A stretch of DNA of 64,000 nt from assembly GCA_965223505.1 (NCBI GenBank), contig CBDCWP010000007.1:66640-130639 (forward strand), written 5' to 3'. Position 1 is the stretch's first letter; each line of letters opens with the position of its first letter. Made by a program: the position numbers and the translations under genes. Source of the DNA: Planctomycetota bacterium. Lineage in GTDB: Bacteria; Planctomycetota; PLA2; JAEUHO01. The notes under the pieces were generated by a model. It did not search any database and was not told the origin of the DNA. It saw only the letters and a list, made by a program, of their open reading frames with translations. Positions 1,563 to 64,000 of this stretch are shown here, one piece after another.

Positions 1563-2651
1563 CTACTCGCCGTGACGGTGGCTCATCAGGATGCCGCGCA
1601 CCGTATCGCTGACGTTCTCGACGAGGTATTCGGGGGGCGGCGTCCAGTGGCCGCCCCGAACCAGCGCGGCGCCGACGCAACGCTCGATCGTGTCGGGGTC
1701 GGCGCCCGCCAGGAGATTGCTGCCGCACTCGAGCGTCTCGGGCCGCTCGGTCACGTCGCGAATCGTCACGTTCGGCACGCCGAAGATGCAGCACTCCTCC
1801 TGCACGGTGCCGCTGTCGCTCAAGACGCAGCGCGCGTTGCGCTCCAGATGAACGAAGTCGAAGAACGAGAACGGCGGCAGGAACCGCACTTCGCCTCCGG
1901 CGGCGTCCACGCCGTGGTGCGTCATGCGGTCCTTGGTGCGCGGATGCGTGCTCACGACGACGGGCACCCCGTGCGCCTTCGCGAGCCGACGAAGGGCCGT
2001 CGTGAGCGCGCGCAGGCGCGGCTCGACGTCGACGTTCTCCGCACGGTGCATCGTGACGACGAAGTACGCGCCGTCTTCGAGGCCCAGCTCGTCGCGGATC
2101 GTGGACGCTTCGATCGAGGGCGCGTGGTGGTTCAGCACCTCGAGGATCGGATTGCCGGTGACGATGACCCGTTGGCCTTCGAAGCCTTCGCGCAGCAGGT
2201 TCATCCGGCTGCGCTCCGTGTAGGGCATCAGCACGTCGCTCGAGTGATCGATGACGCGGCGATTGACCTCTTCGGGCACGCGATCGTCGAAGCAGCGGTT
2301 GCCGGCTTCCATGTGGTAGACGGGGATCCCCATGCGCTTCGCGACGACGGCCGACAAGCCGCTGTTGGTGTCCCCCAGGATCAGCAGCCGGTCCGGTCGC
2401 TCCTCGTCCAGAACGCGCTCGCTCTCGGCCAGGATGTTGCCGATCTGCCGGCCGAACCCGTCGGCGCGAACGTCGAGCCGGTGATCGGGCGCGCGCACGC
2501 CGAGCTGATCGAAGAACACGTCCGAAAGCGCGGGGTCGTGGTTCTGCCCCGTGTGTACCAGCACGTGGTCGCAGGACTTGTCGAGCTTGTCGATCACGAG
2601 CGACAACCGGATGATCTCGGGGCGCGTGCCGAGGATGGTGACGATCTTCAT
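1563..2651 (-). CDS. Non-hydrolysing UDP-N-acetylhexosamine 2-epimerase (WecB/FnlC/WbjD family)
   Basis: Starts MKIVTILGTRPEIIRLS; HTGQN, GDTNS, HMEAGNR and DSGTVQEE motifs; ATGA overlap with the upstream gene. Confidence 0.9.
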   Translation of the reverse strand: MKIVTILGTRPEIIRLSLVIDKLDKSCDHVLVHTGQNHDPALSDVFFDQLGVRAPDHRLDVRADGFGRQIGNILAESERVLDEERPDRLLILGDTNSGLSAVVAKRMGIPVYHMEAGNRCFDDRVPEEVNRRVIDHSSDVLMPYTERSRMNLLREGFEGQRVIVTGNPILEVLNHHAPSIEASTIRDELGLEDGAYFVVTMHRAENVDVEPRLRALTTALRRLAKAHGVPVVVSTHPRTKDRMTHHGVDAAGGEVRFLPPFSFFDFVHLERNARCVLSDSGTVQEECCIFGVPNVTIRDVTERPETLECGSNLLAGADPDTIERCVGAALVRGGHWTPPPEYLVENVSDTVRGILMSHRHGE

Positions 2652-3712
2652 GCCAGCAGCTCGTCCGTCTCTTCCGCGCGATCGTCGACGTGGAGCCGGT
2701 GCTTCGCGAGCAGCGCGTCGAGCTCGTCGCGGGTCATGAGGAAGTCGCCGGAGCTGTACTCCTTCGTCAGCGCGGGCTCGATGCCGTCGGCCTGCGCGAG
2801 CTCCGGAAGGATCGGCCTGACGACGTAGTAGTCGCCGCGCTCGACCGTGCGATGCACCTCTTCCTCGGACACGAGGATCTCGTGCACCTTCTCGCCCGGC
2901 CGAATGCCGATGACCTTCGTCTCGATCGGCCGGTCGCCGATCAGCGCGGCGGCCAGGTCGGTCACCCCGGCGGCCGGCACGCGCGGGATGTACATGTCGC
3001 CGCGCTCGCCGCCCGTCAACGCCGCGAAGACGGTGTCGACGGCCTGGTCGAGGCTCAGGAGGAAGCGCGTCATCTCCGCGGTCGTGATCGTCACGGGACC
3101 GCCGGCGCGAATCTGCTCGTGGAAGAGCGGGATGACCGAGCCGCGCGAGCTCAGGACGTTGCCGTAACGAACGCAGACGAAGCGCGTGTTGGGCGCGTCG
3201 AGGTTCGCCTTGATGAAGATGCGCTCCTGGATCGCCTTGGTCATGCCCATGACGTTGACGGGCTTGCAAGCCTTGTCGGTGCTGATGCCGATGACGGTGT
3301 CCACCGGGAGCTGGTGATTGCGGATCGCCTTGACGATGTTCGACGCGCCGCCGACGTTCGTGTCGGTCGCCTGGCTCGGGAAATACTCGCAGGTGGGCAC
3401 CTGCTTGAGCGCGGCCGCGTTGAACACGACGTCCGACTCGCGCAGCGCCGCCGTCACGTCGTTGATGTCGCGAACGTCGCCGATCCGGAAGTGGAGGGCG
3501 TCGGCGGCCGTCTGGTAGATGACCTCGTCGGTCGCCGCGCGGCGCTTGTGGTAGTGCAGCCGCATCTCGTGCTGCTTGGCTTCGTCGCGCGAGAGCACGG
3601 TGATGCGCGCGGGCGCGCCCAGCTCGCCCGACAACAGCCGCCGCACGAGCACCTTGCCGAGCGAGCCCGTGCCGCCGGTCACGAGCACGCGCTTGTTCTC
3701 AAGTACGGACAC
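2648..3712 (-). CDS. UDP-GlcNAc 4,6-dehydratase/epimerase (FnlA/CapE/WbjB family)
   Basis: VTGGTGSLG, AALKQVPTCE, STDKA, RYGNVLSSRGSVIP and GIRPGEK motifs; GTG start inferred. Confidence 0.9.
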   Translation of the reverse strand: MSVLENKRVLVTGGTGSLGKVLVRRLLSGELGAPARITVLSRDEAKQHEMRLHYHKRRAATDEVIYQTAADALHFRIGDVRDINDVTAALRESDVVFNAAALKQVPTCEYFPSQATDTNVGGASNIVKAIRNHQLPVDTVIGISTDKACKPVNVMGMTKAIQERIFIKANLDAPNTRFVCVRYGNVLSSRGSVIPLFHEQIRAGGPVTITTAEMTRFLLSLDQAVDTVFAALTGGERGDMYIPRVPAAGVTDLAAALIGDRPIETKVIGIRPGEKVHEILVSEEEVHRTVERGDYYVVRPILPELAQADGIEPALTKEYSSGDFLMTRDELDALLAKHRLHVDDRAEETDELLA

Positions 3713-4574
3713 GCCGGATCTCCTCGTAGGGGGTCGGGTCGGCCGCCATGCGCTCCACGAGCGCCGGCCACGCCGGGAACGATAGCCCGGTTGCCGTTCG
3801 GAAGCGCGAGCCATCGAGGCTGCGGTCGATCACGACGGATTCGTCGGGCTCGACCGAGACGCCTGCGCCGTAGGCGGCGTCGATCAGGCGCAGCAGCTCG
3901 AGCTTGTCGATGGGGTCCGCTGCGACGTGGTAGATGCCCTCGAGCTTCGGGTGGTGCTCGGCGATCTGCTCGACGGCCTGCGCCAGCTCGAGCGTGGGCA
4001 CGCCGCTGAAGACGGCCTTCGCGTAGCCCTTCACCGCGCCGCCGCGGTTGGACAGGAACCACTCGACGAGCCCCTGCGTGCTCGCCAGCTCCCGGCCGAT
4101 GATCGACGTGCGAAGCGTGAGACACCCCGGTCCCTCGACCTCGCCCAGGCGCTTCGAGCGACCGTACAGATCGTCCGCGTCCGGCGTGTCCGACTCGCGG
4201 TAGCCGCCCTTCGCGCCGCGGAACACGCAGTCGGTGCTGAAGTGGATCAAGCGCGCGTTCGCAGCCCGGCACGCGTCGGCCAACCGGTGGGGGAGCGCGG
4301 TGTTGATCGCGGCCGCCTCGTCGGGATCGAGCTCGCGTTGCTTGACGAGGCCGATCGCGTTGAGCACCAGCGTCGGCTCCACGCGAGAGAGGAGCCGCCG
4401 CAGCTCGTCATCGTCGCGCGCATCGATCCCCGCCGCGATCTCGGCTTCCGGTGCGAGCTGCCGCAGAAGCTCGACCTGCGACGCCGAACGGACCGTACCG
4501 ACGGCGCGGGGCCCGAAGCGCTGCAGCAGCTTGTGGCCGAGCATGCCTGCAGCGCCCAGGACCAGAACCCGCAT
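3699..4574 (-). CDS. RmlD-like NDP-4-keto-6-deoxyhexose reductase (SDR)
   Basis: GAAGMLG, HFSTDCVF and YGRSK motifs; GGGAGG Shine-Dalgarno (SD). Confidence 0.85.
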   Translation of the reverse strand: MRVLVLGAAGMLGHKLLQRFGPRAVGTVRSASQVELLRQLAPEAEIAAGIDARDDDELRRLLSRVEPTLVLNAIGLVKQRELDPDEAAAINTALPHRLADACRAANARLIHFSTDCVFRGAKGGYRESDTPDADDLYGRSKRLGEVEGPGCLTLRTSIIGRELASTQGLVEWFLSNRGGAVKGYAKAVFSGVPTLELAQAVEQIAEHHPKLEGIYHVAADPIDKLELLRLIDAAYGAGVSVEPDESVVIDRSLDGSRFRTATGLSFPAWPALVERMAADPTPYEEIRRVRT

Positions 4575-4589
4575 TCGCGCCGAGCCTCC

Positions 4590-5252
4590 CTACCACTTCT
4601 CGAACCAGCGCACCATGCGCTTGGCGAATCGGCCGCGCATCCCGCCGGCGGCGCCGCGGTCCGGCTCTCCGTCGAAGTTGCGAAACGCCCAGATGGCGCC
4701 GAACGGGTCGTCGACGGGGTTGCCGTCATCGTCTTTCGTGTGGAACGCCTTGCAGCAGACGAGCTCCCAGCCGTCACCGAAGTCCTCGGGATCCCAGCCG
4801 GAGCGATGCGTCTGCCAGTACGCGCCGTCCATGCCCCAGCGGTCTTCGGCGCCCTCGTGCTCGTACGACTGCGGGAAGAACCCCAGCGGCGTGAAGATCA
4901 TGACCTGTTGCCGGGCGACGCGTTCCGCCTCGGCCAGGAACTTGACGCCGTCCTCCTTCTCCATGTGCTCGACGACGTCGAGCGCAAAGACGCTGTCGAC
5001 GGCGTCGTCGGGCAGGAGCGGTAGGACCTGGTCCCAGGTGCCGTTCAGCGGCACGAAGCGGCGCGGGTCCTTCTGGCCGGCCAGCATGGTCTCGATGTAC
5101 GGCTTGTGCGGCTCGACGACGAGGTGGGTTCGCGCGCGAAAGTAGTCCATGGGCCGGATGCCCGCGCCGACGTCCAACACGACGTCCGTACGCCGCACGC
5201 GCGCGCGCACCGCGTCCTTGGCTTCCTTGCGTTCGACCCACGTGACCGACAT
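4590..5252 (-). CDS. Class I SAM-dependent methyltransferase
   Basis: VLDVGAG motif I and ALDVVEHM; ATG 5252 preceded by GGAG. Confidence 0.75.
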   Translation of the reverse strand: MSVTWVERKEAKDAVRARVRRTDVVLDVGAGIRPMDYFRARTHLVVEPHKPYIETMLAGQKDPRRFVPLNGTWDQVLPLLPDDAVDSVFALDVVEHMEKEDGVKFLAEAERVARQQVMIFTPLGFFPQSYEHEGAEDRWGMDGAYWQTHRSGWDPEDFGDGWELVCCKAFHTKDDDGNPVDDPFGAIWAFRNFDGEPDRGAAGGMRGRFAKRMVRWFEKW

Positions 5253-5334
5253 GTCTCTCCTTCGCGCCGGGGGACAAGCATAGGCGCGCGAACGTACGGG
5301 CAAACCTCGGCCCGAGACGAGGGCCGGGGCGATC

Positions 5335-6132
5335 ATGCTCCGCATGATCGACGTCGCACGCAAGGTCGCGGAGGAAGCCGGTGCGCTGCTCATGGAGCGA
5401 TTCGGTCGGCTATCGGGTCCCGAGATCGAACGCCATGGCCGGCGCGACGTCGTCACCGCCGCGGACCGCGCGGCGGAGGACCTCATCCGCCGCCGGCTCG
5501 AGGGCTACGACGCGGGCATCCCCGTCTTGAGCGAAGAGGACGCGCGCGACGCCGCGCCCGACCGCTCCGGCGGTGCACAGTGGATCGTCGATCCGCTGGA
5601 CGGGACCGTGAACTTCATCCAGGGCATCCCCGTCTTCGCGGTGAGCATCGGGCTCGTCGAGGACGGGCAGCCGCAGCTGGGCGTGATTCACGCGCCGGCC
5701 CTCGGGCAGACGTTCTGGGGCGCGCCGGGCGCGGGCGTGTTCGACGGCAAGCGGCCCGTTTCGGTCAGCGCCACACCGCTGCTCGAGGAGGCGATCGTCG
5801 CGACGGGGTTCGCCTACGGCCGCAACGAGCTCGAGGACGACAACTTCGAGAACGTGCGCCGCATCGGCCTGACGGCGCGCGGGTTGCGGCGCATGGGGGC
5901 GGCCGCCGTGGACCTGGCGTACGTCGCCTCCGGGCGACTCGACGGGTTCTGGGAGCTGCATCTCAAACCGTGGGACGTGGCGGCGGGGGCGGCCCTGATT
6001 CGAGCCGCCGGCGGCCGTGTGTCGGACGCGCGCGGCGGCGAGGATTGGCTCTTTGGAGGGCATGTCGTGGCCACCAACGGCCTGCTTCACGAGCCGCTTC
6101 GCACGGCCCTCGCCCCGCTGAAGGCGCTCTAG
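5335..6132 (+). CDS. suhB: Inositol monophosphatase family protein
   Basis: WIVDPLDGTVNF, RRMGAAAVDLAYVA and KPWDVAAG motifs. Confidence 0.85.
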   Translation: MLRMIDVARKVAEEAGALLMERFGRLSGPEIERHGRRDVVTAADRAAEDLIRRRLEGYDAGIPVLSEEDARDAAPDRSGGAQWIVDPLDGTVNFIQGIPVFAVSIGLVEDGQPQLGVIHAPALGQTFWGAPGAGVFDGKRPVSVSATPLLEEAIVATGFAYGRNELEDDNFENVRRIGLTARGLRRMGAAAVDLAYVASGRLDGFWELHLKPWDVAAGAALIRAAGGRVSDARGGEDWLFGGHVVATNGLLHEPLRTALAPLKAL

Positions 6133-6263
6133 CGAAACGAGCGGGTCCCGACTCCCAGCTTGACGCGCGACCGCGGAGGCGTAACGTCGACGCCTTCCGT
6201 CCCTGGTTTTCGCACACAGACGGAATCACCCGTACAGGCCGAGTTTTTGGGCTTCCGAGGCGA

Positions 6264-7958
6264 ATGGCACCCTCCTCAGACCGTCCCCTCATCGTTCAAA
6301 GCGATCGCTCGCTCCTTCTCGAGGTCGATGCCTCGGGCTACGCGCCCTGCCGGGACGCGATCGCGCCGTTCTGTGAGCTGCTCAAGTCGCCCGAGCACGT
6401 GCACACGTATCGGTTGACGCCGCTCTCGATCTGGAACGCCGCGGCCTCCGGCATGTCGGCGCAAGAGATGGAAGACGCGCTCCAGCGCTTCAGCCGCTTC
6501 GACGTCCCGTCCAACGTGCTGCGGGACATCCGGGATCTCCATCGTCGCTACGGGCGGCTACGGCTCGAAGAGGGCGACGACGGCGAGCTGCGCCTGTCGG
6601 CGGACGAGGCCGAGCTTCTCGACCAGGTGCAGTCGAGCGCGCTCACCAAGGAACTCGTCGGCGCGCGCAACAACGGCCATCTCAGCGTGGCGCGTCACCA
6701 CCGCGGCGAGGTGAAGCGCATGCTCATCAAGCTCGGCTGGCCCGTCGAGGACGTCGCCGGATACGTCGACGGCGGACCGCTCGAGATCAGACTCGCGGGG
6801 CAGACCAACGGCTCGCCCTTCGGCCTGCGCGACTACCAGGGCGACGCGGTGGACATCTTCTACCGCGACGGAACCGTCGAAGGCGGCTCGGGCGTGATCG
6901 TGCTGCCCTGCGGCGCCGGCAAGACGGTCGTCGGCATGGGCGTGATGTCGCGCGTCGGACGCAAGACGCTCATTCTCACGACCAACCACACGGCCGTGAA
7001 GCAGTGGCGCGAAGAGCTGCTCGACAAGACCGAGCTGACCGACGACGACATCGGCGAGTACACGGGCGTCGCGAAGGAGGTGCGGCCGGTCACGATCAGC
7101 ACCTACCAGATCCTCACGTACCGTCGTCGCAAGACGGACCCGTTCGTGCACTTCGATCTCTTCCAGCAGAACGACTGGGGGCTGATCATCTACGACGAGG
7201 TGCACCTGCTGCCCGCCCCGGTGTTTCGCGCGACCGCCGACATCCAGGCCACGCGGCGCCTCGGCCTCACCGCGACGCTGGTGCGCGAGGACGGACACGA
7301 AGAAGACGTGTTCACGCTCATCGGGCCGAAGCGATTCGACCTGCCGTGGAAGGTCCTCGAGCGCCAGGGCTGGATCGCCGAGGCGCACTGCCGCGAGGTG
7401 CGCGTTCCGATGGACGCCGAGCTGCGCAAGCGCTACGTGCTCGCGGGCCAACGCGCGCAGTTTCGCATCGCCGCCGAGAACCCGGCGAAGATCGATCTGC
7501 TCCAGTCGATCCTCGCGCGTCACGAGAACGATCTCGTCATCGTGATCGGCCAGTACCTCGATCAGCTCGATCAGGTAGCGCGCCGCATTCGCGCGCCGTT
7601 GATCACCGGCAAGACGCCGAAAGAAGATCGCATCGAGCTCTACCGCAAGTTCCGCGAGGGCGAAGACACCGTGCTGATCGTCAGCAAGGTCGGCAACTTC
7701 GCCGTCGACCTGCCCGAAGCCAGCGTCATCGTGCAGATGTCGGGGACGTTCGGATCGCGCCAGGAAGAAGCGCAGCGCCTCGGTCGCGTGCTGCGCCCGA
7801 AGTCGGACGGCCGCGGCGCGCGGTTCTACACGCTCGTCAGCGACGAGACGGTCGAACAGGACTTCGCACAGCATCGCCAGCTGTTCCTGACGGAGCAGGG
7901 ATACGCGTACGAGATCATCGATGCATCCAGCGTGCTACAGGACGGCGGTCCTGCATGA
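6264..7958 (+). CDS. XPB/Rad25-like DNA helicase
   Basis: PLIVQSDRSLLLEV N-terminus, LPCGAGKT Walker A, DEVH box, SRQEEAQRLGR. Confidence 0.9.
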   Translation: MAPSSDRPLIVQSDRSLLLEVDASGYAPCRDAIAPFCELLKSPEHVHTYRLTPLSIWNAAASGMSAQEMEDALQRFSRFDVPSNVLRDIRDLHRRYGRLRLEEGDDGELRLSADEAELLDQVQSSALTKELVGARNNGHLSVARHHRGEVKRMLIKLGWPVEDVAGYVDGGPLEIRLAGQTNGSPFGLRDYQGDAVDIFYRDGTVEGGSGVIVLPCGAGKTVVGMGVMSRVGRKTLILTTNHTAVKQWREELLDKTELTDDDIGEYTGVAKEVRPVTISTYQILTYRRRKTDPFVHFDLFQQNDWGLIIYDEVHLLPAPVFRATADIQATRRLGLTATLVREDGHEEDVFTLIGPKRFDLPWKVLERQGWIAEAHCREVRVPMDAELRKRYVLAGQRAQFRIAAENPAKIDLLQSILARHENDLVIVIGQYLDQLDQVARRIRAPLITGKTPKEDRIELYRKFREGEDTVLIVSKVGNFAVDLPEASVIVQMSGTFGSRQEEAQRLGRVLRPKSDGRGARFYTLVSDETVEQDFAQHRQLFLTEQGYAYEIIDASSVLQDGGPA

Positions 7959-10006
7959 GCGCACGCAACGGGAGAGGCATCGCGCTCAAGAAGCACCTCG
8001 AGAAGACGAAGGTCGCCGACTTGAAGGGCGTCTACGCGTTCTGGTCGGGCGACGACGCGCCTCCGGGACAGAAGAAGCAGCTCGTGAGCTCGCTCGCGGC
8101 GCTCATGGAGGAAGAGGGCACCGTCTACCGCCGGGTGCGCACGCTCACGCGCAAGGTGCTCGACGTGCTGCTGTTGCTGCTGCGACGCGACCACTACGCA
8201 TCCGATCTGCCCGGGTTGTTCCAGCGGCTGCCCGGCGAGGACGCGATCGATCTCGAGTTCCACGAGGCCGAGGCCGGCCTGAAGGCGCTCTCGCGCCGGG
8301 GTTTCCTTGCCGAGGTCTCCGAGAGCGCGACGAACGGCCGCGTCGTGTACACGGTGCCGCAGGAGCTCGGCACACTGCTCACCTCGCTGTTCCGCGAAGA
8401 GACGAGGACCGTGGCCAGCGTGTTCTCGCTGCGGGAGCACGCGGCGACGATCACGGCGACCGAGCGCGAACGGCTTCGCAAGTCGTTCCCGAAGCTCAAC
8501 GGCGCCCCGCACGCGGAGGACGTCGAGCGCATTTTCGGCGCGGACGGCGCGCCCGCGTTGCTCGACCGGCTGACACCGGAGCTGCGCGACGTCTTCGAGC
8601 ACGCGCGTCGCCGGTACGGCGGGGTCGCGCTTCGATCGCAGTGGAGCGCACGAAGCGAGCTCAAGAACGTCAGGTGGGATCGCAAGTCGTGGGCGGCGGC
8701 CCTCGAGTCGGCGGCGCTCGGTACCGTCGCCCGACTCGCGCTCAACTCGTACGGCATCGCCTGCGACGACGAGGCGCTCGTCATCTTCACCGAGGTGATC
8801 GAAGACCTGATCGCGCGCGAGAGCGAGGATGCGTTCGAGCACGACGAGGTGCTGCGCTCGGGCTGCGACCTCATCGCCGACATGGGCCACTATCTCGAGT
8901 ACGTCCGCCGCAACCCGGTCAAGGTCAGCCGCAAGGGCGAGGTCTACAAGGCGGGCAAGAGGAAGATCCAGAACGGCTTCGTGTTCCGCGCGTGTTTCCT
9001 GGCCGACGCGAGCCGGATCTGGGACGAGGTTCACCACGCGGCGGACCATCTCGCGCTGGTGGCGACGGGCGGCGACGGGTTCCTCGAGCTTCGTCCCGAG
9101 GCGGAGGCGTTCCTGAAGCACCCGCTCGAAGAGAAGGTGATGGAGCTCTATCGGGTCGCGCTCGAGCAGCCCGGCTCCAAGGGCCGCAGCCTGCATCAAC
9201 ACGAGCTTCGCACGGTCGTGGCGCAGCTTCTCCGCGAGCATCCGCAGCGTTGGTGGCGCGGTCGTTCGCTCGCCATGCTCGCGCGGCACCGCTACTTCGC
9301 CACGCTCGACGAGCGGGGCATCAAGGACCGACACCGCGACCGCTTCTTCTCGGCGTATTTCTCCGGCCGCGAGACACCGGCGGATCTGCTGCACGAGCTC
9401 GATCGGGAGTGGTTGCCGCGGTTGTTCATCCAGGGGCTGACCGAGGCCGCCGTCAAGGACGACCAGGTCGTCGCTTGGCGGCTCACGGCGCTCGGCGCGC
9501 GCGTCTTCGGCGCGGAGATCCCGGAGCTCGAGACCGGCTTGCAGCCGGTCGTCGTGAACCCGGACTTCGAGGTCATGGTGCTGCCGGACGGCGACGTGAG
9601 CGACGTCGTGCACACGCTCGACGCGTTCGCGCGTCGCGAGAAGTCCGGGGACGTCGTCCACTTCCGTCTGACCAAGGAGGCCATCGAGGCCGCGGTCGGC
9701 GCCGGGCGCTCCGTGCGCGAGCTGATCGACTTCCTCGAGGCGCGCTCCAAGGGGCAGGTTCCGCAGAACGTGATCTACACGCTCAACTCGTGGGCCGGAT
9801 CCGTGACGTTCGCCACGCTGGAGCATGGGTTCGTCCTGACCGCCGATGACGAAGCTGCGCTCGATCGGATCTTGGCCTTCGAGGAGATTTCCGCACTCGT
9901 GAAGCGCCGCCTGAGCCCGTCCGAGGCGCTGTTGCGGGAGGCGCCTTCGGACCGCAAGCTGCTCGCGACGTTGCGCGAGCGCGGCATCGAGCTCAAAGGC
10001 CCCTAA
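7955..10006 (+). CDS. XPB-associated protein with C-terminal helicase-associated (Helicase_C_3-like) domain
   Basis: ATGA overlap with XPB; C-terminal VVNPDFEVMV...LTKEAIEAA...VPQNVIYTLNSW pattern. Confidence 0.7.
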   Translation: MSARNGRGIALKKHLEKTKVADLKGVYAFWSGDDAPPGQKKQLVSSLAALMEEEGTVYRRVRTLTRKVLDVLLLLLRRDHYASDLPGLFQRLPGEDAIDLEFHEAEAGLKALSRRGFLAEVSESATNGRVVYTVPQELGTLLTSLFREETRTVASVFSLREHAATITATERERLRKSFPKLNGAPHAEDVERIFGADGAPALLDRLTPELRDVFEHARRRYGGVALRSQWSARSELKNVRWDRKSWAAALESAALGTVARLALNSYGIACDDEALVIFTEVIEDLIARESEDAFEHDEVLRSGCDLIADMGHYLEYVRRNPVKVSRKGEVYKAGKRKIQNGFVFRACFLADASRIWDEVHHAADHLALVATGGDGFLELRPEAEAFLKHPLEEKVMELYRVALEQPGSKGRSLHQHELRTVVAQLLREHPQRWWRGRSLAMLARHRYFATLDERGIKDRHRDRFFSAYFSGRETPADLLHELDREWLPRLFIQGLTEAAVKDDQVVAWRLTALGARVFGAEIPELETGLQPVVVNPDFEVMVLPDGDVSDVVHTLDAFARREKSGDVVHFRLTKEAIEAAVGAGRSVRELIDFLEARSKGQVPQNVIYTLNSWAGSVTFATLEHGFVLTADDEAALDRILAFEEISALVKRRLSPSEALLREAPSDRKLLATLRERGIELKGP

Positions 10007-39101: not shown

Positions 39102-40451
39102 CTACATCACGCCGTACGCCATCATCGCGTCGGCGACACGCACGAAACCGGCTACGTTGGCGCCCGTCACGTAGTCGACGTGCTCGCCCTCGGCGCCGAA
39201 CTGCACGCACTTCTCGTGGATGTCGCACATGATCTCTTGGAGCTTCTGGTCCACCTCCTTGGCGGTCCAGCTCAGGCGCATGGAGTTCTGGGTCTGCTCG
39301 AGGCCGGAAACGGACACGCCGCCGGCGTTCGCCGCCTTGCCCGGTCCGTACAAGATCTGCGCGTCCTGGAACGCGTCGATGCCTTCGAGCGTGGTCGGCA
39401 TGTTCGCGCCTTCGGACACGGCCAGCACCCCGTTCTTCACGAGCGTGCGGGCGTCGTCGCCGTCGAGCTCGTTCTGCGTCGCCGACGGGAACGCGAGATC
39501 GACCGGCACCGCCCACGGACGCTTGCCGGCGTGGTACTCGCACCCGAACTCGTCGGCGTATTCGCTGATGCGCCCACGGCGGTTGAACTTGAGGTCCTTG
39601 ACCCACGCGAGCTTCTCTTTGTCGATCCCGTCCTTGTCGTAGACGAAGCCGCCCGAGTCCGAGAGCGTCACGACCTTGCCGCCCATGCGCCGGGCCTTCT
39701 CGGCCGTGTAGATCGCCACGTTGCCCGAGCCCGAGACCGCGCAGCGCTTCCCGTCGATCGTCTCGCCGGTGCGCTTGAGCATCTCGTTCATGAAGTAGAC
39801 CGAGCCGTAGCCGGTCGCCTCCGGCCGCATGAGGCTGCCGCCGTAGCTCAGGCCCTTGCCGGTCATGGCGCCCACGTAGCGGTTCACGAGACGCTTGTAC
39901 TGTCCGAAGAGGAACCCGATCTCGCGCGAGCCGACGCCGATGTCGCCGGCCGGCACGTCGGTGTCCTCGCCGATGTGGGGGAAGAGCTTCGTCATGAACG
40001 CGTAGCAGAACCGCATGACCTCGCGGTCGGACTTGCCCTTGGGGTCGAAGTCCGAGCCGCCCTTCGCACCGCCCATCGGCAAACCCGTGAGCGAGTTCTT
40101 GAAGATCTGTTCGAACCCCAGGAACTTGACCACGCCCAGGTCCACGGACGGATGGAATCGCAGTCCGCCTTTGTAGGGGCCGATCGCGCTGTTGAACTGC
40201 ACGCGGTACCCGCGGTTGGTGCGGATCTTGCCCTCGTCGTCTTCCCACGTGACGCGGAACATGATCGCGCGGTCCGGTTCGACGAGGCGCTCGAGGATCG
40301 CTGCGTGCTTGAACTCCGGGTTGGCGTCGATGTACGGCATGATCGTCTTCACGACCTCGTACACCGCCTGGTGAAACTCCTCCTCGCAGGGGTTCTTCGC
40401 CCGCAGGCGCTCCATGAAGACGTCGAGTCGATCGCTGCCGGCGTTGGACAT
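39102..40451 (-). CDS. gdhA: NADP-specific glutamate dehydrogenase
   Basis: GPYKGGLRFHPSV, GGAKGGSDFDPKGKS, RPEATGYG and GKAANAGGV motifs. Confidence 0.96.
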   Translation of the reverse strand: MSNAGSDRLDVFMERLRAKNPCEEEFHQAVYEVVKTIMPYIDANPEFKHAAILERLVEPDRAIMFRVTWEDDEGKIRTNRGYRVQFNSAIGPYKGGLRFHPSVDLGVVKFLGFEQIFKNSLTGLPMGGAKGGSDFDPKGKSDREVMRFCYAFMTKLFPHIGEDTDVPAGDIGVGSREIGFLFGQYKRLVNRYVGAMTGKGLSYGGSLMRPEATGYGSVYFMNEMLKRTGETIDGKRCAVSGSGNVAIYTAEKARRMGGKVVTLSDSGGFVYDKDGIDKEKLAWVKDLKFNRRGRISEYADEFGCEYHAGKRPWAVPVDLAFPSATQNELDGDDARTLVKNGVLAVSEGANMPTTLEGIDAFQDAQILYGPGKAANAGGVSVSGLEQTQNSMRLSWTAKEVDQKLQEIMCDIHEKCVQFGAEGEHVDYVTGANVAGFVRVADAMMAYGVM

Positions 40452-40734
40452 AGGGGGGCCTCTCTCAGGCGGCGAGCCAGGGTACACATCGCCGGCGGGA
40501 ATGCATCCGGCATGACGATCCCGTGCATACAGGCTACGAATCGCGCCTCGCGAGACGCCTCGTCCCGAGCCGGGTTTCAGCCGCCACACGCTGTGTCTCC
40601 CCGTGGTGACGTTCCGCGCGTTCGGGCTGCGGACAAATGGTCGGACAGGCCTGGGAGCGCCTTCGAGGGGGACTAAACTCGACGCGTGCGGCGTTTTCCT
40701 TCCGTACGACGCACCGGCCGCGCAGAGGACCTTC

Positions 40735-41880
40735 ATGACCCGACGACTCCGCTCGACGCGCCTTGCTTGGGTTCTCGCAGGCGCCTCTCTGCTCACGGCG
40801 TGCGGCGACGACGGCGGGACGTACGTCATCACGGAAGTGCGCGACCGCGGCCGCCCGAACCGGATCATCCCGTCCGACGTCACGGACGGCGATCGGCTGC
40901 TGGGTCGCAAGCGCGAGATGACGTACGAATGGACGACGCCCGAAGGCTGGAAGGCGCTCGACGAGAACCCGAATCGCATCGCGACGTACGAGGTGCCCGG
41001 TACGCCTCCGGCCGAGTGCGTGATCTCCAGCCTGCCCGGCGACGCGGGCGGCGAGCTCGCCAACATCAATCGTTGGTGCAAGCAGATGAAGCACGACCCG
41101 ATCCCGTCGTTGTCCGACGACGCCGTTCAGTGGTTGGCGCTCGAGGGCCTGAAGCAGGACGCGATCGCCGTCGATCTGACCGGCACCTACGTGGGCATGC
41201 GCGGGAACGAGGAGCTCGAGAACGCACGCATGTTGGTCGGGCTCGTCCCGCGACCGGGGCACACGCTGTTCGTGAAGATGATCGGCGTCGATGCCGTCGT
41301 GAACGCCGCCGGCGAGGACTTTCGCGCGCTCCTTCATTCGCTCGTGCGAACCGGTGACGCGGCGCCGCACACCATGGACGGCCACGGCGGCATGGGGCAC
41401 GGCGGCGGACCGATCCCGCCGCCGCCCAAAGAGACGCCGGTCGCCAAGGGACTTCACTGGAGCGCACCGGACGGTTGGGCGTCGCGGCGGACACCCGGCG
41501 CGACCCGCCTCGGCACGCTCAAGCCGTCGGAGGACTCGGAGGTCGAGTGCACCGTCACCGTGTTGCGCGGCGACGGCGGCGGCCTGCACATGAACGTGAA
41601 CCGCTGGGCGGAGCAGATGCAGCACGCCCGGTTCAGCGAGGACGCGCTCGAGAAGCTCGACACGATCGAGGTGCTCGGCGTGGACGGCCGCATCGTCGAG
41701 ATTCCGGGTCACTATCGCGGCATGAAGGGCGAGTCCGTCGACGACGCGCTCATGCTCGCGCTCGTCTGCTTCGTCGATCAAGAAGCCGTCTTCGTGAAGA
41801 TGACCGGCCCCCGAGACGAGGTCGCGGCGCTCAAGGACACCTTCCTCGCATTGTGCCGCTCGCTGCGGCTGGAGGCGTGA
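40735..41880 (+). CDS. Lipoprotein with two tandem copies of an unknown domain, first gene of the cytochrome c maturation operon
   Basis: Lipobox LTAC; repeated W..P.GW / GG...N.NRW..QM / FVKM.G. Confidence 0.7.
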   Translation: MTRRLRSTRLAWVLAGASLLTACGDDGGTYVITEVRDRGRPNRIIPSDVTDGDRLLGRKREMTYEWTTPEGWKALDENPNRIATYEVPGTPPAECVISSLPGDAGGELANINRWCKQMKHDPIPSLSDDAVQWLALEGLKQDAIAVDLTGTYVGMRGNEELENARMLVGLVPRPGHTLFVKMIGVDAVVNAAGEDFRALLHSLVRTGDAAPHTMDGHGGMGHGGGPIPPPPKETPVAKGLHWSAPDGWASRRTPGATRLGTLKPSEDSEVECTVTVLRGDGGGLHMNVNRWAEQMQHARFSEDALEKLDTIEVLGVDGRIVEIPGHYRGMKGESVDDALMLALVCFVDQEAVFVKMTGPRDEVAALKDTFLALCRSLRLEA

Positions 41881-43082
41881 CCGTGGGTGTGCTCAAGGGC
41901 CTCTTCCGGCTGTTCGGCTCGTACGGCTTCGCGTGCGTGATCCTGATCCTGTTGCTGATCCTCACGCTGCTCGGCACGCTCGAGCAGGAAGACCGCAGCA
42001 TCTACGACGTGCAGAAGGAGTACTTCGAGTCCACGTTCGTCGTGTCGCGCGTGATCGGGCGGGCCGACGACGGGACCGGCGGGTTCCCGATCATCCTGCC
42101 CGGTGCGTACCTGCTGCTTTCGTTGTTGGCCGTGAATCTCGTCGTGGGCGGCATGATCCGCCTGCGCTGGCGGCCGCGGGTCGTCGGCATCTTCATCGCC
42201 CACCTGGGGATCGCGTTCCTGCTCGTGGGTGGCATGATCGAGTTCCACTACTCGACCAAGGGCAACATGCAGATCTGGGAGGGTGATTCGAACCAGGAGT
42301 TCGAGAGCTACTTCCTGTGGGAGCTGGCGGTCATCCGGAAGAACAAGGACGGCTCGGTCCGCGAGTACGTCGTTCCGCACGAGCAGTTCGCGGAGCTCGA
42401 CGACGACGAACGGTCCGTGTTCACGTCCGACGATCTGCCGTTCGACATCGAGGTGCGCGACTTCAAGCGCAACTGCCGGCCTGTGCCGGCGGGGCGTGGC
42501 TCCAAGGGCATCGGCGGATTCCTCCTCAAGGAGGTGGCGCCGGCGCAGAAGGCCGAGCAGAACCTCGCGGGTCTCTACGCGACGATCATCGACAAGAAAA
42601 CCCAGACGCGACGCCAGGCGGTGATCTGGGGCTGGCAGGTCTACCCGTACGAGCTGGCCTTCGACGGCGCGACCTACTACGTCGATCTGCGCAAGCAGCG
42701 CTACCCGTTGCCGTTCGAGCTCGACCTCGACCGGTTCGTCTACGTGCAGCACCCCGGCTCGATGAAGCCGAAGGAGTTCTCGAGCTACGTCACGAAGAAC
42801 GAAGGCAAGGCCAGCGAGGACGTACACATCACGATGAACGAGCCCTATCGTCACCAGGGCTACACCTTCTATCAAAGCGGATGGGGGCCGCAGAACGTGC
42901 CGCCGGAGCGTGTCGAGCGCTGGTACACGGTGTTCTCCGTCGTCAAGAACCCGGCCGACAAGGTCCCCGAGTACGCGTGCTGGATCATCGCCCTCGGACT
43001 CTTGATCCACTTCGTCTGGAAGCTCGTCCTCTACATGGGTCGTGAAGAGAAGATGCGTTCGCGAGAGAGGCAGGCCGCGTGA
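41877..43082 (+). CDS. resB: ResB/CcsB-like cytochrome c biogenesis protein
   Basis: Three N-terminal TM helices, AHLG, LPFELDLDRF, MNEPYRHQGYTFYQSGW; GTGA overlaps on both sides. Confidence 0.75.
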   Translation: MTVGVLKGLFRLFGSYGFACVILILLLILTLLGTLEQEDRSIYDVQKEYFESTFVVSRVIGRADDGTGGFPIILPGAYLLLSLLAVNLVVGGMIRLRWRPRVVGIFIAHLGIAFLLVGGMIEFHYSTKGNMQIWEGDSNQEFESYFLWELAVIRKNKDGSVREYVVPHEQFAELDDDERSVFTSDDLPFDIEVRDFKRNCRPVPAGRGSKGIGGFLLKEVAPAQKAEQNLAGLYATIIDKKTQTRRQAVIWGWQVYPYELAFDGATYYVDLRKQRYPLPFELDLDRFVYVQHPGSMKPKEFSSYVTKNEGKASEDVHITMNEPYRHQGYTFYQSGWGPQNVPPERVERWYTVFSVVKNPADKVPEYACWIIALGLLIHFVWKLVLYMGREEKMRSRERQAA

Positions 43083-61329: not shown

Positions 61330-62679
61330 CTAGTGTCCCATCACCTCGGGCCGCGGTCTCGGCACCTTGAAGTCGACCTGAATCGTCTCACCCTGCCGGA
61401 CCACCTTCAGCTTCACCTTCGCACCGGGCTGTTTCTCGCGCATCAAGTAGGCCAGGTACGTGCTGCGGGTCCAGCCCGACTTGCCGTCCACCTCGACGAT
61501 GAGGTCGCCGCGTTGGAGCTTGTTGAAGGGCTCCCGGTTGGACTTCTTGAACCACCCCGGTGAGCGTCGGGCCACCCGGACCCCCTTCGGGTCGTCGGCC
61601 AGGGACACGCCGCCCCAGAGCCACATGGCATAGCCGGCGACGCGGTAGCGCCAACCGAAGTCGCCCTCGCGGCGCCAGCCGTCGGCCAACTCGAACGTGA
61701 GGTCGTGTGACGCGCCTTTGCGATCGATCTTCGCGGGCATCGTTCCGCCCTCATCGGGAAACGTGTGCAACACCCACTGCAGGTCGGCCACGGAACACAG
61801 AGGCTGGCCGTCGAGGAACCGAATGTCGTCGCCCACCTGCAGACCCGCTTTCGCAGCCGCGGAGTCGGGTTCGACGGCCGTGACGCGCGCGCAGTGGTCC
61901 TTGCTGAGCGTGAGTCCGAGGATCGACGGGAGCGGATAGACCCACAGCTCACGGTCCGGCAAGGCGCGCTTCGACATGAAGTGCGAGTCGATCACCATCC
62001 GCTGCACTTCGTGGCAATGTATGCAGCCCTTGGTGTCCGTGTTGCGAACGCGGCCGGGCCGCTTGTACTTGCGCGCGGACGGCGTCTTTTCCGGAGACGG
62101 CCACGGAGGAGCGGCGCCGGTCTTCGCGGCCAGCGTCTTGCGCGTCGCAGGATCCTTGCGATAGGCCTCGTCCAGAAGCAGCGCCCGCCTGAGCGCCGCC
62201 ACGATCCCCGCCACGCTGTGATTCGGGTTCGAGTCGAGCTTGTTGCGATTGGCCTGCGGTGAGGCGGTCCCGTAGCGCCCGTAGATCGTCTTGTCGGGGT
62301 GCATGAGGAACACCGCCCACGACAGGAACGGGTCGAACTGGAACGTCGCCAGGTCCGCGCCGCCCATCTGCACGATGCGCACGCACACGAACCGGTCCAT
62401 CAGCTTGCTGAGCTCTTCGTCCTGTCGTCCGACCAACTGGCCGTCGATGCTCGCGCAGCCTACTCATGGGACGCAGCGGAAAGAGACGAGCATGGGCTTG
62501 CCGGCCTTCTCGGCCTCGGCGTACCCGGCCTCGATGTCGTCGTAGATCCAGTCCCCGGAGAGCAGCTTGTCTCCCAGGGCGTCTTTCAACTTCTCGTCGT
62601 CGCCGAAGCTCGAAACCGCCGTCAAGACGCAGATCGAGCCCCAGACGACGAGAAGTGCCGGCGCGAGGGTTCGTTTCAT
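61330..62679 (-). CDS. Secreted thioredoxin-like/PDZ-domain selenoprotein (UGA 62464-62466 = Sec72 predicted), 449 aa
   Basis: Signal peptide, WIYDDIEAGYAEAEKAGKPMLVSFRCVP-TGA-VGC, in frame with the downstream 368-aa ORF (CIHCH and two PDZ-like domains). Confidence 0.85.
62422..62458 (-). promoter_or_regulatory. Candidate SECIS element of the Trx/PDZ gene
   Basis: Upper stem ATCGAC/GTTGGT (62448-62432, two GU pairs) with GGCCA loop starting at +22 from UGA. Confidence 0.45.
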
Positions 62680-62691
62680 CCTCGCGATTCT

Positions 62692-62723
62692 AGCGGGCGG
62701 CTGACCTAGCCGCAGGTGCCGCC
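62692..62723 (-). promoter_or_regulatory. Candidate SECIS element of the micro-ORF
   Basis: Perfect stem GCGGCT/AGCCGC (62713-62697), loop AGGTC with GG at +21/+22; lower stem GGCGG/CCGCT. Confidence 0.5.
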
Positions 62724-62789
62724 GTTTCAGCAGCCCGTGAGGATCGCGGCCATGACGGCGAGCATCGCCAAGCTGAGCATCCAGCGCAT
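62706..62789 (-). CDS. Candidate 27-aa seleno-lipopeptide precursor MRWMLSLAMLAVMAAILTGC-U-NGGTCG
   Basis: AGGAG SD 6 nt before ATG 62789; hydrophobic signal with lipobox LTGC; TGA 62727-62729; TAG 62706-62708; too short for the ORF track. Confidence 0.55.
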
Positions 62790-63077
62790 GTCTTTCTCCT
62801 GCTGTGAATGGCCTGATGCCACATCGAGGCCGCCCCTGCCTTTGGGTCGGCACTCTATGCCCGCGACTGGACCGATGCAACGCGCCGATCCGGCGTTTCC
62901 GACCACCTACTTCGGGCGGGTGCGCCCTCGCAGCGCGCACGGTGCGGCGCGCCCACGACGCGACCCCGGGATCGAGCGGCGGCGCGCCGCGGCACGCCTC
63001 CAACGCGCTCGACGAACGCGAGACGGGCAGCGCGCGCCGTTCGCGGACGCGCGGCCCGCGGTCACCAAGCAGTCGGC

Positions 63078-64000
63078 CTACCGCAGCGGGTGCCAGTCGA
63101 TGTAGCCGATCATCATCTCGTCGAAGGTCTGCTCGCCGAAGTGGACGGCGCGCGTGGGATCGGGATTGGCCGGGTTGCCCTCGCTGTTGTCGAACCATCC
63201 CGTCGCCTTGATGCGGCACCCCGCCGGCAGGTCGAGCGGCTCGCGCAGCTGATAGAAGAGCTGCCAGTTGAAGTCGTAGCGCGGAACGTCGAGCAGCAAG
63301 GAGACCGTGCCGTCCGGGCGGATCAGCTCGTACCGAAACGCCTTGCCGCGTAGATGCATGTGCGGTGTGAAACCGAAGATGCGCACCCGCTGCGGAAAGA
63401 AGCGCGTGCCGCTCACGGGGTGGTTCGCGGCGCCCGGCGGAATGAGGAACTTCGTGCTGTAGGCGCCCGCGCTCCGGATCTCGTGCTCGGGCTCGCCCGG
63501 GGCGAAGATCAGCCCGAGCCGCGTGCGGTCCTTCACCGCCTTCCCGTTGGGCGTGTAGTGCAACTGGAACCGAAGCGTCGCGCCCTTCGGCAGGAACCGC
63601 GCCGTTCCCGTCGGGAACGTGAACGCCGACTGTCCCGGCACCATCGCCGCGAAGTACCCGGCGAGGCCGCCGCGCACGCGGGGCTGATCGGAACGGCGCG
63701 GGTGCGACGTCGGGTAGCGAACGAACACGAGCGCGTGGTGCACGACCTCCGGCGCGGTCGGCCGCACCTCCATGGCCTTCACCCAGCGGTCCTCGCCGAA
63801 GTCGGTCTCGACGTCGAAGTACTGGTACTTCACGACGCCGTCGGCCGGCACCGGGAACGCGCGCGGAAGCTCGACGACCGCGTCGGGCTTCCCGATCTTC
63901 CACCCCTTGACGAAGGTGCGCGGAACCGGGGCGGCGTCCTTCGGTCCCTGCGGCATGCCGGCGTCGATCCACGCGAGCAAACGCTGCTTGTCGAGCGGCG
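63078..64000 (-). CDS. Copper type II ascorbate-dependent monooxygenase-like domain protein, 5' truncated by the window
   Basis: VVHHALV, FQLHY, PHMHLRG and DEMM match the HH/H and HxH/M copper-ligand pattern; the frame stays open to the window edge. Confidence 0.7.
   Translation of the reverse strand, partial: PLDKQRLLAWIDAGMPQGPKDAAPVPRTFVKGWKIGKPDAVVELPRAFPVPADGVVKYQYFDVETDFGEDRWVKAMEVRPTAPEVVHHALVFVRYPTSHPRRSDQPRVRGGLAGYFAAMVPGQSAFTFPTGTARFLPKGATLRFQLHYTPNGKAVKDRTRLGLIFAPGEPEHEIRSAGAYSTKFLIPPGAANHPVSGTRFFPQRVRIFGFTPHMHLRGKAFRYELIRPDGTVSLLLDVPRYDFNWQLFYQLREPLDLPAGCRIKATGWFDNSEGNPANPDPTRAVHFGEQTFDEMMIGYIDWHPLR

Follow-up and report, generated by a model that had tools for sequence, protein, structure and literature searches.

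On the minus strand of a 64,000-nt stretch of DNA from a Planctomycetota bacterium (GCA_965223505.1, contig CBDCWP010000007.1; hereafter the window), a short open reading frame (ORF) encodes a lipoprotein signal peptide as far as the lipobox cysteine, meets an in-frame TGA, and has six more sense codons before a TAG. The question that this locus raises is whether the TGA ends a short hydrophobic peptide or is read as selenocysteine (Sec). We compared the ORF with its relatives, its RNA hairpin with a model of the bacterial Sec insertion sequence (SECIS), and its surroundings between genomes. These data suggest that the small ORF is a real, unannotated protein-coding gene whose UGA would be read as Sec to give a 27-residue prolipoprotein, a reading to which we assign a probability of about 0.8. 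It most likely represents a genuine, lineage-restricted and so far unannotated family of tiny seleno-lipoproteins with a minimal SECIS straddling the stop codon. Most likely, the gene belongs to a lineage-specific group of tiny Cys/Sec lipoproteins that one Planctomycetota family carries.

Organization of the small ORF

All coordinates refer to the window, which is the end of its contig (C7) in an assembly of 5.15 Mb and 67% GC. The gene reads on the minus strand, and we call its type family A. Its parts are as follows.

62796..62800, minus strand: AGGAG, a Shine-Dalgarno (SD)-like sequence 6 nt 5' of the ATG
62706..62789, minus strand: ORF of 27 codons plus stop, the proposed precursor of a tiny seleno-lipoprotein (family A); ATG at 62789-62787; conserved in relatives
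62730..62789, minus strand: predicted lipoprotein signal peptide (codons 1-20), basic at its start, hydrophobic in its core and closed by the lipobox L-T-G-C (62741-62730)
62732-62730, minus strand: Cys20, the lipobox Cys and predicted site of lipidation and cleavage
62727..62729, minus strand: in-frame TGA, the proposed Sec codon, residue 21 (+2 of the mature peptide), present in 9/9 of the copies compared below
62709..62726, minus strand: six codons after the UGA, N-G-G-T-C-G, which hold the second Cys of a U-x4-C unit
62708-62706, minus strand: TAG stop, codon 28, spanned by the hairpin stem
62697..62713, minus strand: SECIS-like hairpin with a 6-bp stem and a 5-nt loop, AGGUC, that begins 19 nt past the UGA

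The stem of the hairpin consists of a 5' arm (62713-62708), drawn from the Cys and Gly codons and the first base of the stop, and an untranslated 3' arm (62702-62697); the loop occupies 62707-62703, and ΔG is about −9 to −10. The N-terminus has a basic n-region, an uncharged h-region, a lipobox of the form [LVI][ASTVI][GAS]C and its Cys at 15-35, in line with the PROSITE lipoprotein rule.

A preliminary description of this DNA had listed the SD, the ATG at 62789, the signal peptide, the lipobox Cys, the TGA, the codons NGGTCG, the TAG, the 6-bp hairpin and a gap of 26 nt to the next gene, and we found each of them in its place. It had also pointed to a −10-like box, TAGAGT. This hexamer is present (62857-62852), but a scan of 62400-63200 returned no promoter-like site around it; the same scan returned no terminator-like site. 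Rfam and tRNA scans of the window gave no match.

Conservation of family A

We built a profile from five copies of the ORF and searched it over 29 genomes of the same Planctomycetota family. Family A ORFs were found in 8/29 of these genomes, each at E <= 1.6e-12 and each with exactly one TGA, and none of the 11 genomes of the sister family had one. One genome per species (185,579 species) was also scanned with a degenerate DNA pattern, which gave 31 loci, seven of them with an in-frame signal peptide upstream. All seven were Planctomycetota metagenome-assembled genomes (MAGs) that the profile had also found, and the remaining 24 were chance matches. Over metagenome contigs, the same pattern gave 37 loci, two of them genuine (one new variant and one identical to a MAG copy). 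Contigs from two runs, X1 and X2, match the window exactly; they probably come from its source sample and add no independent evidence. The comparison below uses nine distinct copies, eight from genomes and one metagenome variant.

The ATG, the TGA at codon 21 and the TAG at codon 28 were invariant in 9/9 copies, with no indels in 84 nt, and a GGAG-type motif stood 7-10 nt before the ATG in every copy. TAA or TAG at codon 21, which would have pointed to a plain stop, was found in none of the nine. Variation followed the codons: the numbers of variable columns at codon positions 1, 2 and 3 were 14, 9 and 20, and Ser6 was encoded by AGC in seven copies and by TCG in two. Mean pairwise identity was 0.35 upstream of the ORF, 0.74 in the signal peptide, 0.87 between the TGA and the stop and 0.29 past the hairpin. 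The copies share the consensus M-R-x3-S-[LI]-x-[MF]-L-x3-A-A-[ILV]-L-T-G-C-U-[SNA]-G-G-x-C-G-stop, in which Arg2 and L-T-G-C are invariant (9/9). After the UGA, the frame, the length, the G-G and the C-G were kept in 9/9 copies, and the two variable codons took three and five forms.

A hairpin that fits the bacterial SECIS model

The bacterial SECIS model, as given in PMC13188914, allows loops of 3-9 nt on stems of 4-16 bp, places the loop at 16-37 nt from the UGA and asks for a minimum free energy <= −7.5; it also requires a G within the first two loop positions, usually followed by G or U. We folded each family A copy separately. All nine hairpins had a 6-bp stem, a 4-5 nt loop of the form A-G-[G/U]-U(C), a 19-nt spacing and a ΔG of −8.0 to −10.9, and in 9/9 copies the hairpin lay within every constraint of the model as given there. 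At one stem pair, five copies have C-G and the other four G-C; on the 5' side this pair uses a synonymous third position, that of the last Gly codon, and on the 3' side a base past the stop. The outer stem pair was G-U in one copy. A precedent for this placement is SaoC, in which the SECIS hairpin lies in or beyond the stop and the UGA is next to the gene's end (Haft & Gwadz, bioRxiv 10.1101/2022.07.06.499078).

Related tiny lipoproteins with predicted Sec or Cys

The preliminary description had advised a search for relatives with a lipobox Cys and either TGA or TGY. Beyond family A in 8/29 genomes, we found a second Sec-type gene in the same genome and a range of Cys-only forms. The second gene (C41:116057-116170, minus strand; L041/L122) reads C-x4-U-x4-C plus eight codons and has an 8-bp hairpin with a GUC loop 20 nt after its UGA. 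It belongs to family B (lipobox C-x3-5-U-x4-C), which we found in 8/29 genomes of the Planctomycetota family at E <= 2e-12 with one TGA each. Across 401 sampled Planctomycetota genomes, strong matches to the family B profile were confined to this Planctomycetota family. Two weak matches with an in-frame TGA lie outside it (G236 C68:4559-4636 and G247 C3:819118-819222, E about 1e-3), and these might be distant members or noise. A bridging form in genome G003 reads C-x3-U-x-G-G-x-C-F-stop, and two further variants exist. Overall, at least one Sec-type tiny lipoprotein was present in 15/29 genomes of the Planctomycetota family.

These related genes read on in frame for 13-31 codons beyond the UGA. 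Family B-like hairpins had stems of 7-8 bp, a GUC or GGUCU loop and a position 20-23 nt after the UGA in 9/9 genes, with at least three different stem sequences in the same placement. In the family B alignment, 95.1% of cells were paired, a value reached by 0/500 shuffles.

The clearest single result came from a variant in another genome (G018 C104), which aligns with database protein P0002 at 54% identity (E = 2e-15). Opposite the TGA, P0002 has a Cys, and the two have a common tail up to 30 residues past it. As aligned, they are a predicted Sec/Cys ortholog pair.

The Cys-only tiny lipoproteins (C-x-G-G-C-x-x-C-G... and C-R-G-G-C-C-G) have Cys in the Sec column, and in several genomes they stand in tandem directly upstream of the family B gene. 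Families A and B also occupy the same syntenic slot: the family A gene of G022 and the C41 family B gene of our genome both have a HEAT-like protein (44% identity) on one side and, on the other, a convergent MFP-RND operon (RND 65%), with which the C41 gene is tail-to-tail. This suggests that the two are interchangeable forms of one gene. The nearest Cys-only look-alikes of family A are 136-residue lipoproteins whose mature part begins C-C-x-G-G-x-C (E = 2e-5), and a Pfam search with one of them gave no domain. Two loci of this kind, L077 (G006 C8:150119-150526) and L081 (G024 C522), with the gene at 1495-1902 of the locus, have the mature start C-C-A-G-G-K-C followed by a Cys-rich stretch.

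We also observed many further Cys-rich tiny lipoproteins in the same genome. Five tandem tiny lipoprotein ORFs at C40:223695-225950 (plus strand; L190) have mature parts rich in Cys, Asp and Pro with CDPC-type repeats, and a gene for a FUR-family regulator lies about 2.5 kb from this array. In two other genomes, lipoproteins of ~65 residues (L051 in G016, L061 in G010) have repeats of the type C-N-x-P-N-K-C-N-T-C and a metallothionein-like look.

Machinery for Sec insertion and lipidation

The preliminary description would have been weakened by a genome that lacks selABCD. We found selA, selB, selC and selD: tRNA-Sec is present, and SelB (335.7 bits), SelA (507 bits) and SelD (338 bits) each score over their cut-offs. 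SelB was found in 28/29 genomes of the Planctomycetota family, and the sole miss was an 88%-complete MAG. Lgt (136 bits) and LspA (80.9 bits) are likewise present in the same genome over their cut-offs. The selA and selD genes are adjacent at C8:36851-39232, and selD itself has an in-frame TGA.

Is the UGA an ordinary stop?

If the UGA were an ordinary stop, the product would be a hydrophobic mini-protein of 20 residues or a signal peptide with Cys as its last residue, and the hairpin would be a terminator or an mRNA-stabilising stem. Tiny hydrophobic membrane proteins do exist in bacteria, the hairpin is GC-rich and stands at the 3' end with a U/C-rich stretch after it in about half of the copies, and the 66-nt fold of this copy is ordinary (z = −0.76). 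However, the terminator scan was empty, and a U tract is missing from three copies (G000, G008 and G044). In 9/9 copies, UGA and stem are separated by a 13-nt spacer of constant length and frame; the G-G and C-G codons stay fixed, and what varies between them varies by codon. A peptide terminated at the lipobox Cys would have no use for an invariant lipobox. The related genes stay in frame past their UGA, one tail matching a Cys-containing database protein, and they have hairpins of different sequence at the same distance of 19-23 nt. We consider an ordinary stop improbable.

The original proposal of an unannotated gene with UGA as Sec and a mature lipopeptide of eight residues is supported by the TGA and stop fixed in 9/9 copies, the fit to the SECIS model, the covariation, the machinery and the Sec/Cys relatives.

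Genomic neighborhood

Two neighboring genes, neither of them part of the element, flank the small ORF in the window.

61330..62679, minus strand: gene of a Trx7/PDZ (seleno)protein (NF041199, 328 bits, cut-off 300) with its own UGA at 62466-62464
63078..63998, minus strand: upstream ORF cut by the contig end, with a Cu2_monoox_C domain (PF03712, E = 4.3e-7)

The stop of the small ORF is 26 nt from the Trx7/PDZ ATG (62679), on the same strand. The Trx7/PDZ selenoprotein gene has its own hairpin, with the loop AGUU 25 nt after its UGA. The Cu2_monoox_C ORF is 288 nt upstream of the small ORF, and this gene was not found beside the small ORF in the other genomes examined. Every family A peptide has a C-terminal Gly, and the ORF upstream here is of the copper monooxygenase type; peptidylglycine monooxygenases act on a C-terminal Gly.

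The proximity of a second selenoprotein gene raises the possibility that the ORF is translated with Sec but that its peptide is irrelevant, the ORF serving as a leader that senses selenium or Sec-tRNA supply and sets downstream selenoprotein expression. The 26-nt distance on the same strand and the position of the hairpin between the two genes are what such a leader would have. The preliminary description had advised looking upstream of Trx7/PDZ orthologs for further copies. We examined seven orthologs (56-61% identical), and 0/7 loci had a small ORF upstream, so the link to Trx7/PDZ is local to this genome. Five genomes of one genus have a convergent RND pump directly after the ORF, which leaves nothing downstream to regulate, and in G008 and G012 the downstream genes differ again. 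Moreover, a sensor needs no invariant lipoprotein signal and lipobox. We regard a leader function as very unlikely.

In place of a fixed partner, family A genes have transporters and unrelated enzymes as neighbors. In G008 (L188, C4:376000-392000, ~2499-9006), the row on one strand is DoxX, an ABC ATPase (ABC_tran), the family A gene, Peripla_BP_2 and a FecCD permease, and it ends with a protein carrying six CarboxypepD_reg repeats. Elsewhere the gene adjoins an MFP-RND efflux operon. The HEAT-like protein was considered as a shared upstream partner and rejected, being common to G000 and G022 and not found in G008 or G005; a Pfam search with it gave nothing useful.

This variety of neighbors also bears on the suggestion, made in the preliminary description, that the ORF is a RiPP-like precursor (ribosomally synthesized and post-translationally modified peptide). 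On this account, which would resemble the selenobacteriocins, the hydrophobic N-terminus would be a leader, and a maturase would cross-link the Cys/Sec core before export. Small Sec precursor peptides are indeed catalogued (selenobacteriocin, TIGR04081, motif SGUG; PMC13188914). A Cys-only tiny lipoprotein of the same genome, C-TSGGG-C-ST-C-GG (C26:39755-39850), also lies tail-to-tail with an enzyme gene (39975-42452; L191), and this enzyme is an 826-residue radical SAM/SPASM + methyltransferase fusion. Yet a radical SAM gene was absent from the flanks of all other loci examined, and the full-length ortholog of the C26 enzyme in G003 has no tiny lipoprotein neighbor. The peptides match neither TIGR04081 nor any other NCBIfam model at E <= 1, bar weak lipoprotein-signal matches, and their N-terminus is a textbook lipoprotein signal. 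With neither a maturase neighbor nor a TIGR04081 match for family A, the RiPP suggestion found no support, and we hold it to be even less probable than a leader.

Single-genome statistics and points against Sec insertion

The preliminary description had cautioned that short ORFs and GC hairpins arise by chance, and the caution was well placed. We scanned the genome with the PROSITE lipoprotein rule, asking for a lipobox Cys, a TGA within 8 residues, a later Cys and an SD. The 66-nt fold was matched or bettered by 45/200 shuffles (z = −0.76). Of 40000 TGA trinucleotides sampled in this genome, 260 (0.65%) are followed by a hairpin with a perfect stem of >=6 bp, a ΔG <= −7.5 and a 3-5 nt G[G/U] loop that begins 19-23 nt past the TGA. 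Such a hairpin was present in both real lipobox-TGA matches and in neither match of the reversed-genome control. Taken by itself, the ORF pattern in a single genome is hardly above chance and not convincing; the case rests on comparison with relatives. A chance ORF over a conserved non-coding element, which would suit a pattern no commoner than in the reversed genome and a high-GC genome full of spurious ORFs, is the least credible of the alternatives given the third-position bias, the AGC/TCG switch at Ser6, the SD, ATG and stop fixed without indels in 9/9 copies, and the sharp fall in identity at both ends of the ORF and hairpin unit.

Several observations nonetheless weigh against the reading of family A as a Sec-containing lipoprotein gene. 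The lipoprotein-rule scan gave two matches in the genome and two in the reversed control. All family A carriers are uncultured MAGs of one Planctomycetota family. Three of the six post-UGA codons and the stop sit inside the hairpin, so conservation after the UGA is not cleanly assignable to peptide or RNA. We found no strict Cys ortholog of family A, the tiny Cys forms differing in spacing, and no precedent for Sec at +2 of a lipoprotein. Hairpin covariation, which had been suggested as a check, was seen as one compensatory pair (C-G/G-C, five versus four copies), but this pair possibly reflects a single event; the covariation in family A is real but thin, maybe one or two events. In family B, one pair changes on both sides, a count reached by 57/500 shuffles; the covariation there is modest because six stems are identical and the copy from our genome is out of register in the alignment. 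In about half of the family A copies, a U/C-rich stretch comes after the hairpin, and the latter could also act in termination. As for function, the RND pump scores higher with multidrug models than with CusA/CzcA models, all below their cut-offs. The neighbors vary between genera, which leaves function without consistent contextual support, and context cannot choose between the metal and redox roles considered next.

Proposed synthesis and function of the lipopeptide

On the reading that we favor, a ribosome would arrive at the UGA of codon 21 while SelB and Sec-tRNA(Sec) are held by the hairpin, whose loop lies 19 nt downstream. Sec would be inserted at codon 21, and translation would stop six codons later, the stem spanning the stop codon. 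The signal peptide would take the precursor to the membrane, where Lgt would lipidate the lipobox Cys and LspA would cut before it. The product would be an octapeptide anchored by its lipid, in the order lipid-Cys, Sec, x-G-G-x-Cys-Gly. The comparison between relatives supports translation of the ORF with Sec inserted at codon 21. Lipidation and cleavage at Cys20 are predicted from sequence rules and the enzymes present.

The sulfur of the lipidated Cys would be blocked in a thioether, and for this reason the working pair would be the selenium of Sec(+2) and the sulfur of Cys(+7), on a flexible Gly-Gly linker. We lean tentatively, at a little under even odds, towards a role of this pair in the binding or transfer of a thiophilic metal, for instance Cu(I) or Hg(II). 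This lean has three sources: the CU and CC motifs have been argued to mark heavy-metal contact (Haft & Gwadz, bioRxiv 10.1101/2022.07.06.499078); the paralogs carry CxxC or CC and the genome has many Cys-rich tiny lipoproteins; and the G008 gene lies inside an ABC/Peripla_BP_2/FecCD operon and other copies lie beside an efflux pump. Alternatively, the pair may cycle between selenol/thiol and selenenylsulfide as a membrane-tethered redox arm for peroxides or disulfides. We hold this to be nearly as likely, if well short of even odds, because most selenoproteins are redox proteins, a Trx-type periplasmic selenoprotein directly follows the gene here, and the string G-C-U-x-G resembles the thioredoxin reductase tail.

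These genes might also encode an entire class of Cys/Sec micro-peptides that are anchored by lipid and have ~6-12 mature residues in U-x4-C, CxxC and CC forms. Alongside the longer Cys-rich lipoproteins, they would make up a thiol/selenol layer at the membrane surface that buffers thiophilic metals or detoxifies peroxides. We put this forward as a conjecture that falls somewhat below even odds. If it holds, the layer would be a genetically encoded, lipid-tethered counterpart of small-molecule thiols, and its Sec versions would be the smallest selenoproteins known, with a SECIS largely beyond the stop.

Searches of databases and literature

In Pfam and NCBIfam release 20, no model matched these peptides at E <= 1, bar weak similarity to lipoprotein signals. 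The signal part gave weak matches to LptM (NF047847; E 0.012-0.25, below the cut-off), and the models of SaoC (NF040734), KCU-star (NF033934) and MbdU (NF045648) gave no match at E <= 1. A profile search of 1,835,955,588 representative proteins returned three matches at E <= 1e-3, among them a fragment that breaks off at the UGA, and the sole database protein returned by the family B profile was a truncated one, P0001. This near-silence is explained by a double blind spot of annotation, an ORF of fewer than 30 codons that also has an in-frame UGA.

The preliminary description knew of no described example, and our searches agree with it. The family models above gave none, and no such family appears among the 119 prokaryotic selenoprotein families in the accessible part of the catalogue, whose table includes the families of Haft & Tolstoy 2025 (PMC13188914). 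The accessible parts of that paper and of the BSepDB paper (PMC13326102) make no mention of lipoproteins or Planctomycetes. In full-text literature, we found no related description that joins a selenoprotein with a lipobox.

If our reading is true, this would be the shortest selenoprotein gene and product described, with 27 codons and a mature peptide of eight residues. It would also be an uncatalogued kind of molecule, a ribosomally made, lipid-anchored selenopeptide. Its hairpin of 17-18 nt across the stop would be a natural minimal design for placing Sec near a C-terminus, which is relevant to selenoprotein engineering. Because a synthetic octapeptide would suffice, it would further offer a simple, fold-free system for the benefit of Sec over Cys at a membrane surface.

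Comparison with known systems

The hairpin resembles bacterial SECIS elements of the Escherichia coli fdhF type in that it falls within all four quoted constraints (PMC13188914). It differs in being minimal, with a 6-bp stem, and in lying half beyond the stop rather than inside the coding sequence.

Among selenoproteins, SaoC (NF040734) offers the closest parallel in layout: it is mostly a lipoprotein, has rare CU members, and has been proposed to contact heavy metals (Haft & Gwadz, bioRxiv 10.1101/2022.07.06.499078). Like family A, it joins a lipoprotein and a CU motif with a UGA near the gene's end and a SECIS in or beyond the stop. According to the same text, however, SaoC averages 158 residues, has its CU at the C-terminus and belongs to a conserved nine-gene locus of anaerobes. 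The gene here has a 27-residue precursor with the CU at the lipobox, no such locus and no match to the SaoC model.

KCU-star/DUF466 proteins (NF033934) are likewise small and have a CU motif close to the stop. They are cytoplasmic, have no signal peptide, are about twice as long or more and have a model that gives no match here. The selenobacteriocin peptides of TIGR04081 resemble family A in being very short, Gly-rich and Sec-containing. TIGR04081 peptides contain two Sec residues and are associated with a radical SAM maturase, whereas family A has one predicted Sec, a lipoprotein signal, no conserved maturase and no match to that model.

LptM, Lpp and the entericidins also start from a short precursor with an Lgt/LspA-type signal, but their mature parts have tens of residues and no Sec; the mature part here would have eight residues. 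Animal thioredoxin reductase has a C-terminal G-C-U-G redox tail on a large flavoenzyme, and its Cys-Sec pair forms a selenenylsulfide. The precursor here has the string G-C-U-[S/N/A]-G and shares with that tail a Cys and a predicted Sec side by side in a flexible stretch flanked by Gly. In contrast to thioredoxin reductase, the adjacent Cys here is the predicted lipidation site, and the partner of Sec would have to be Cys(+7).

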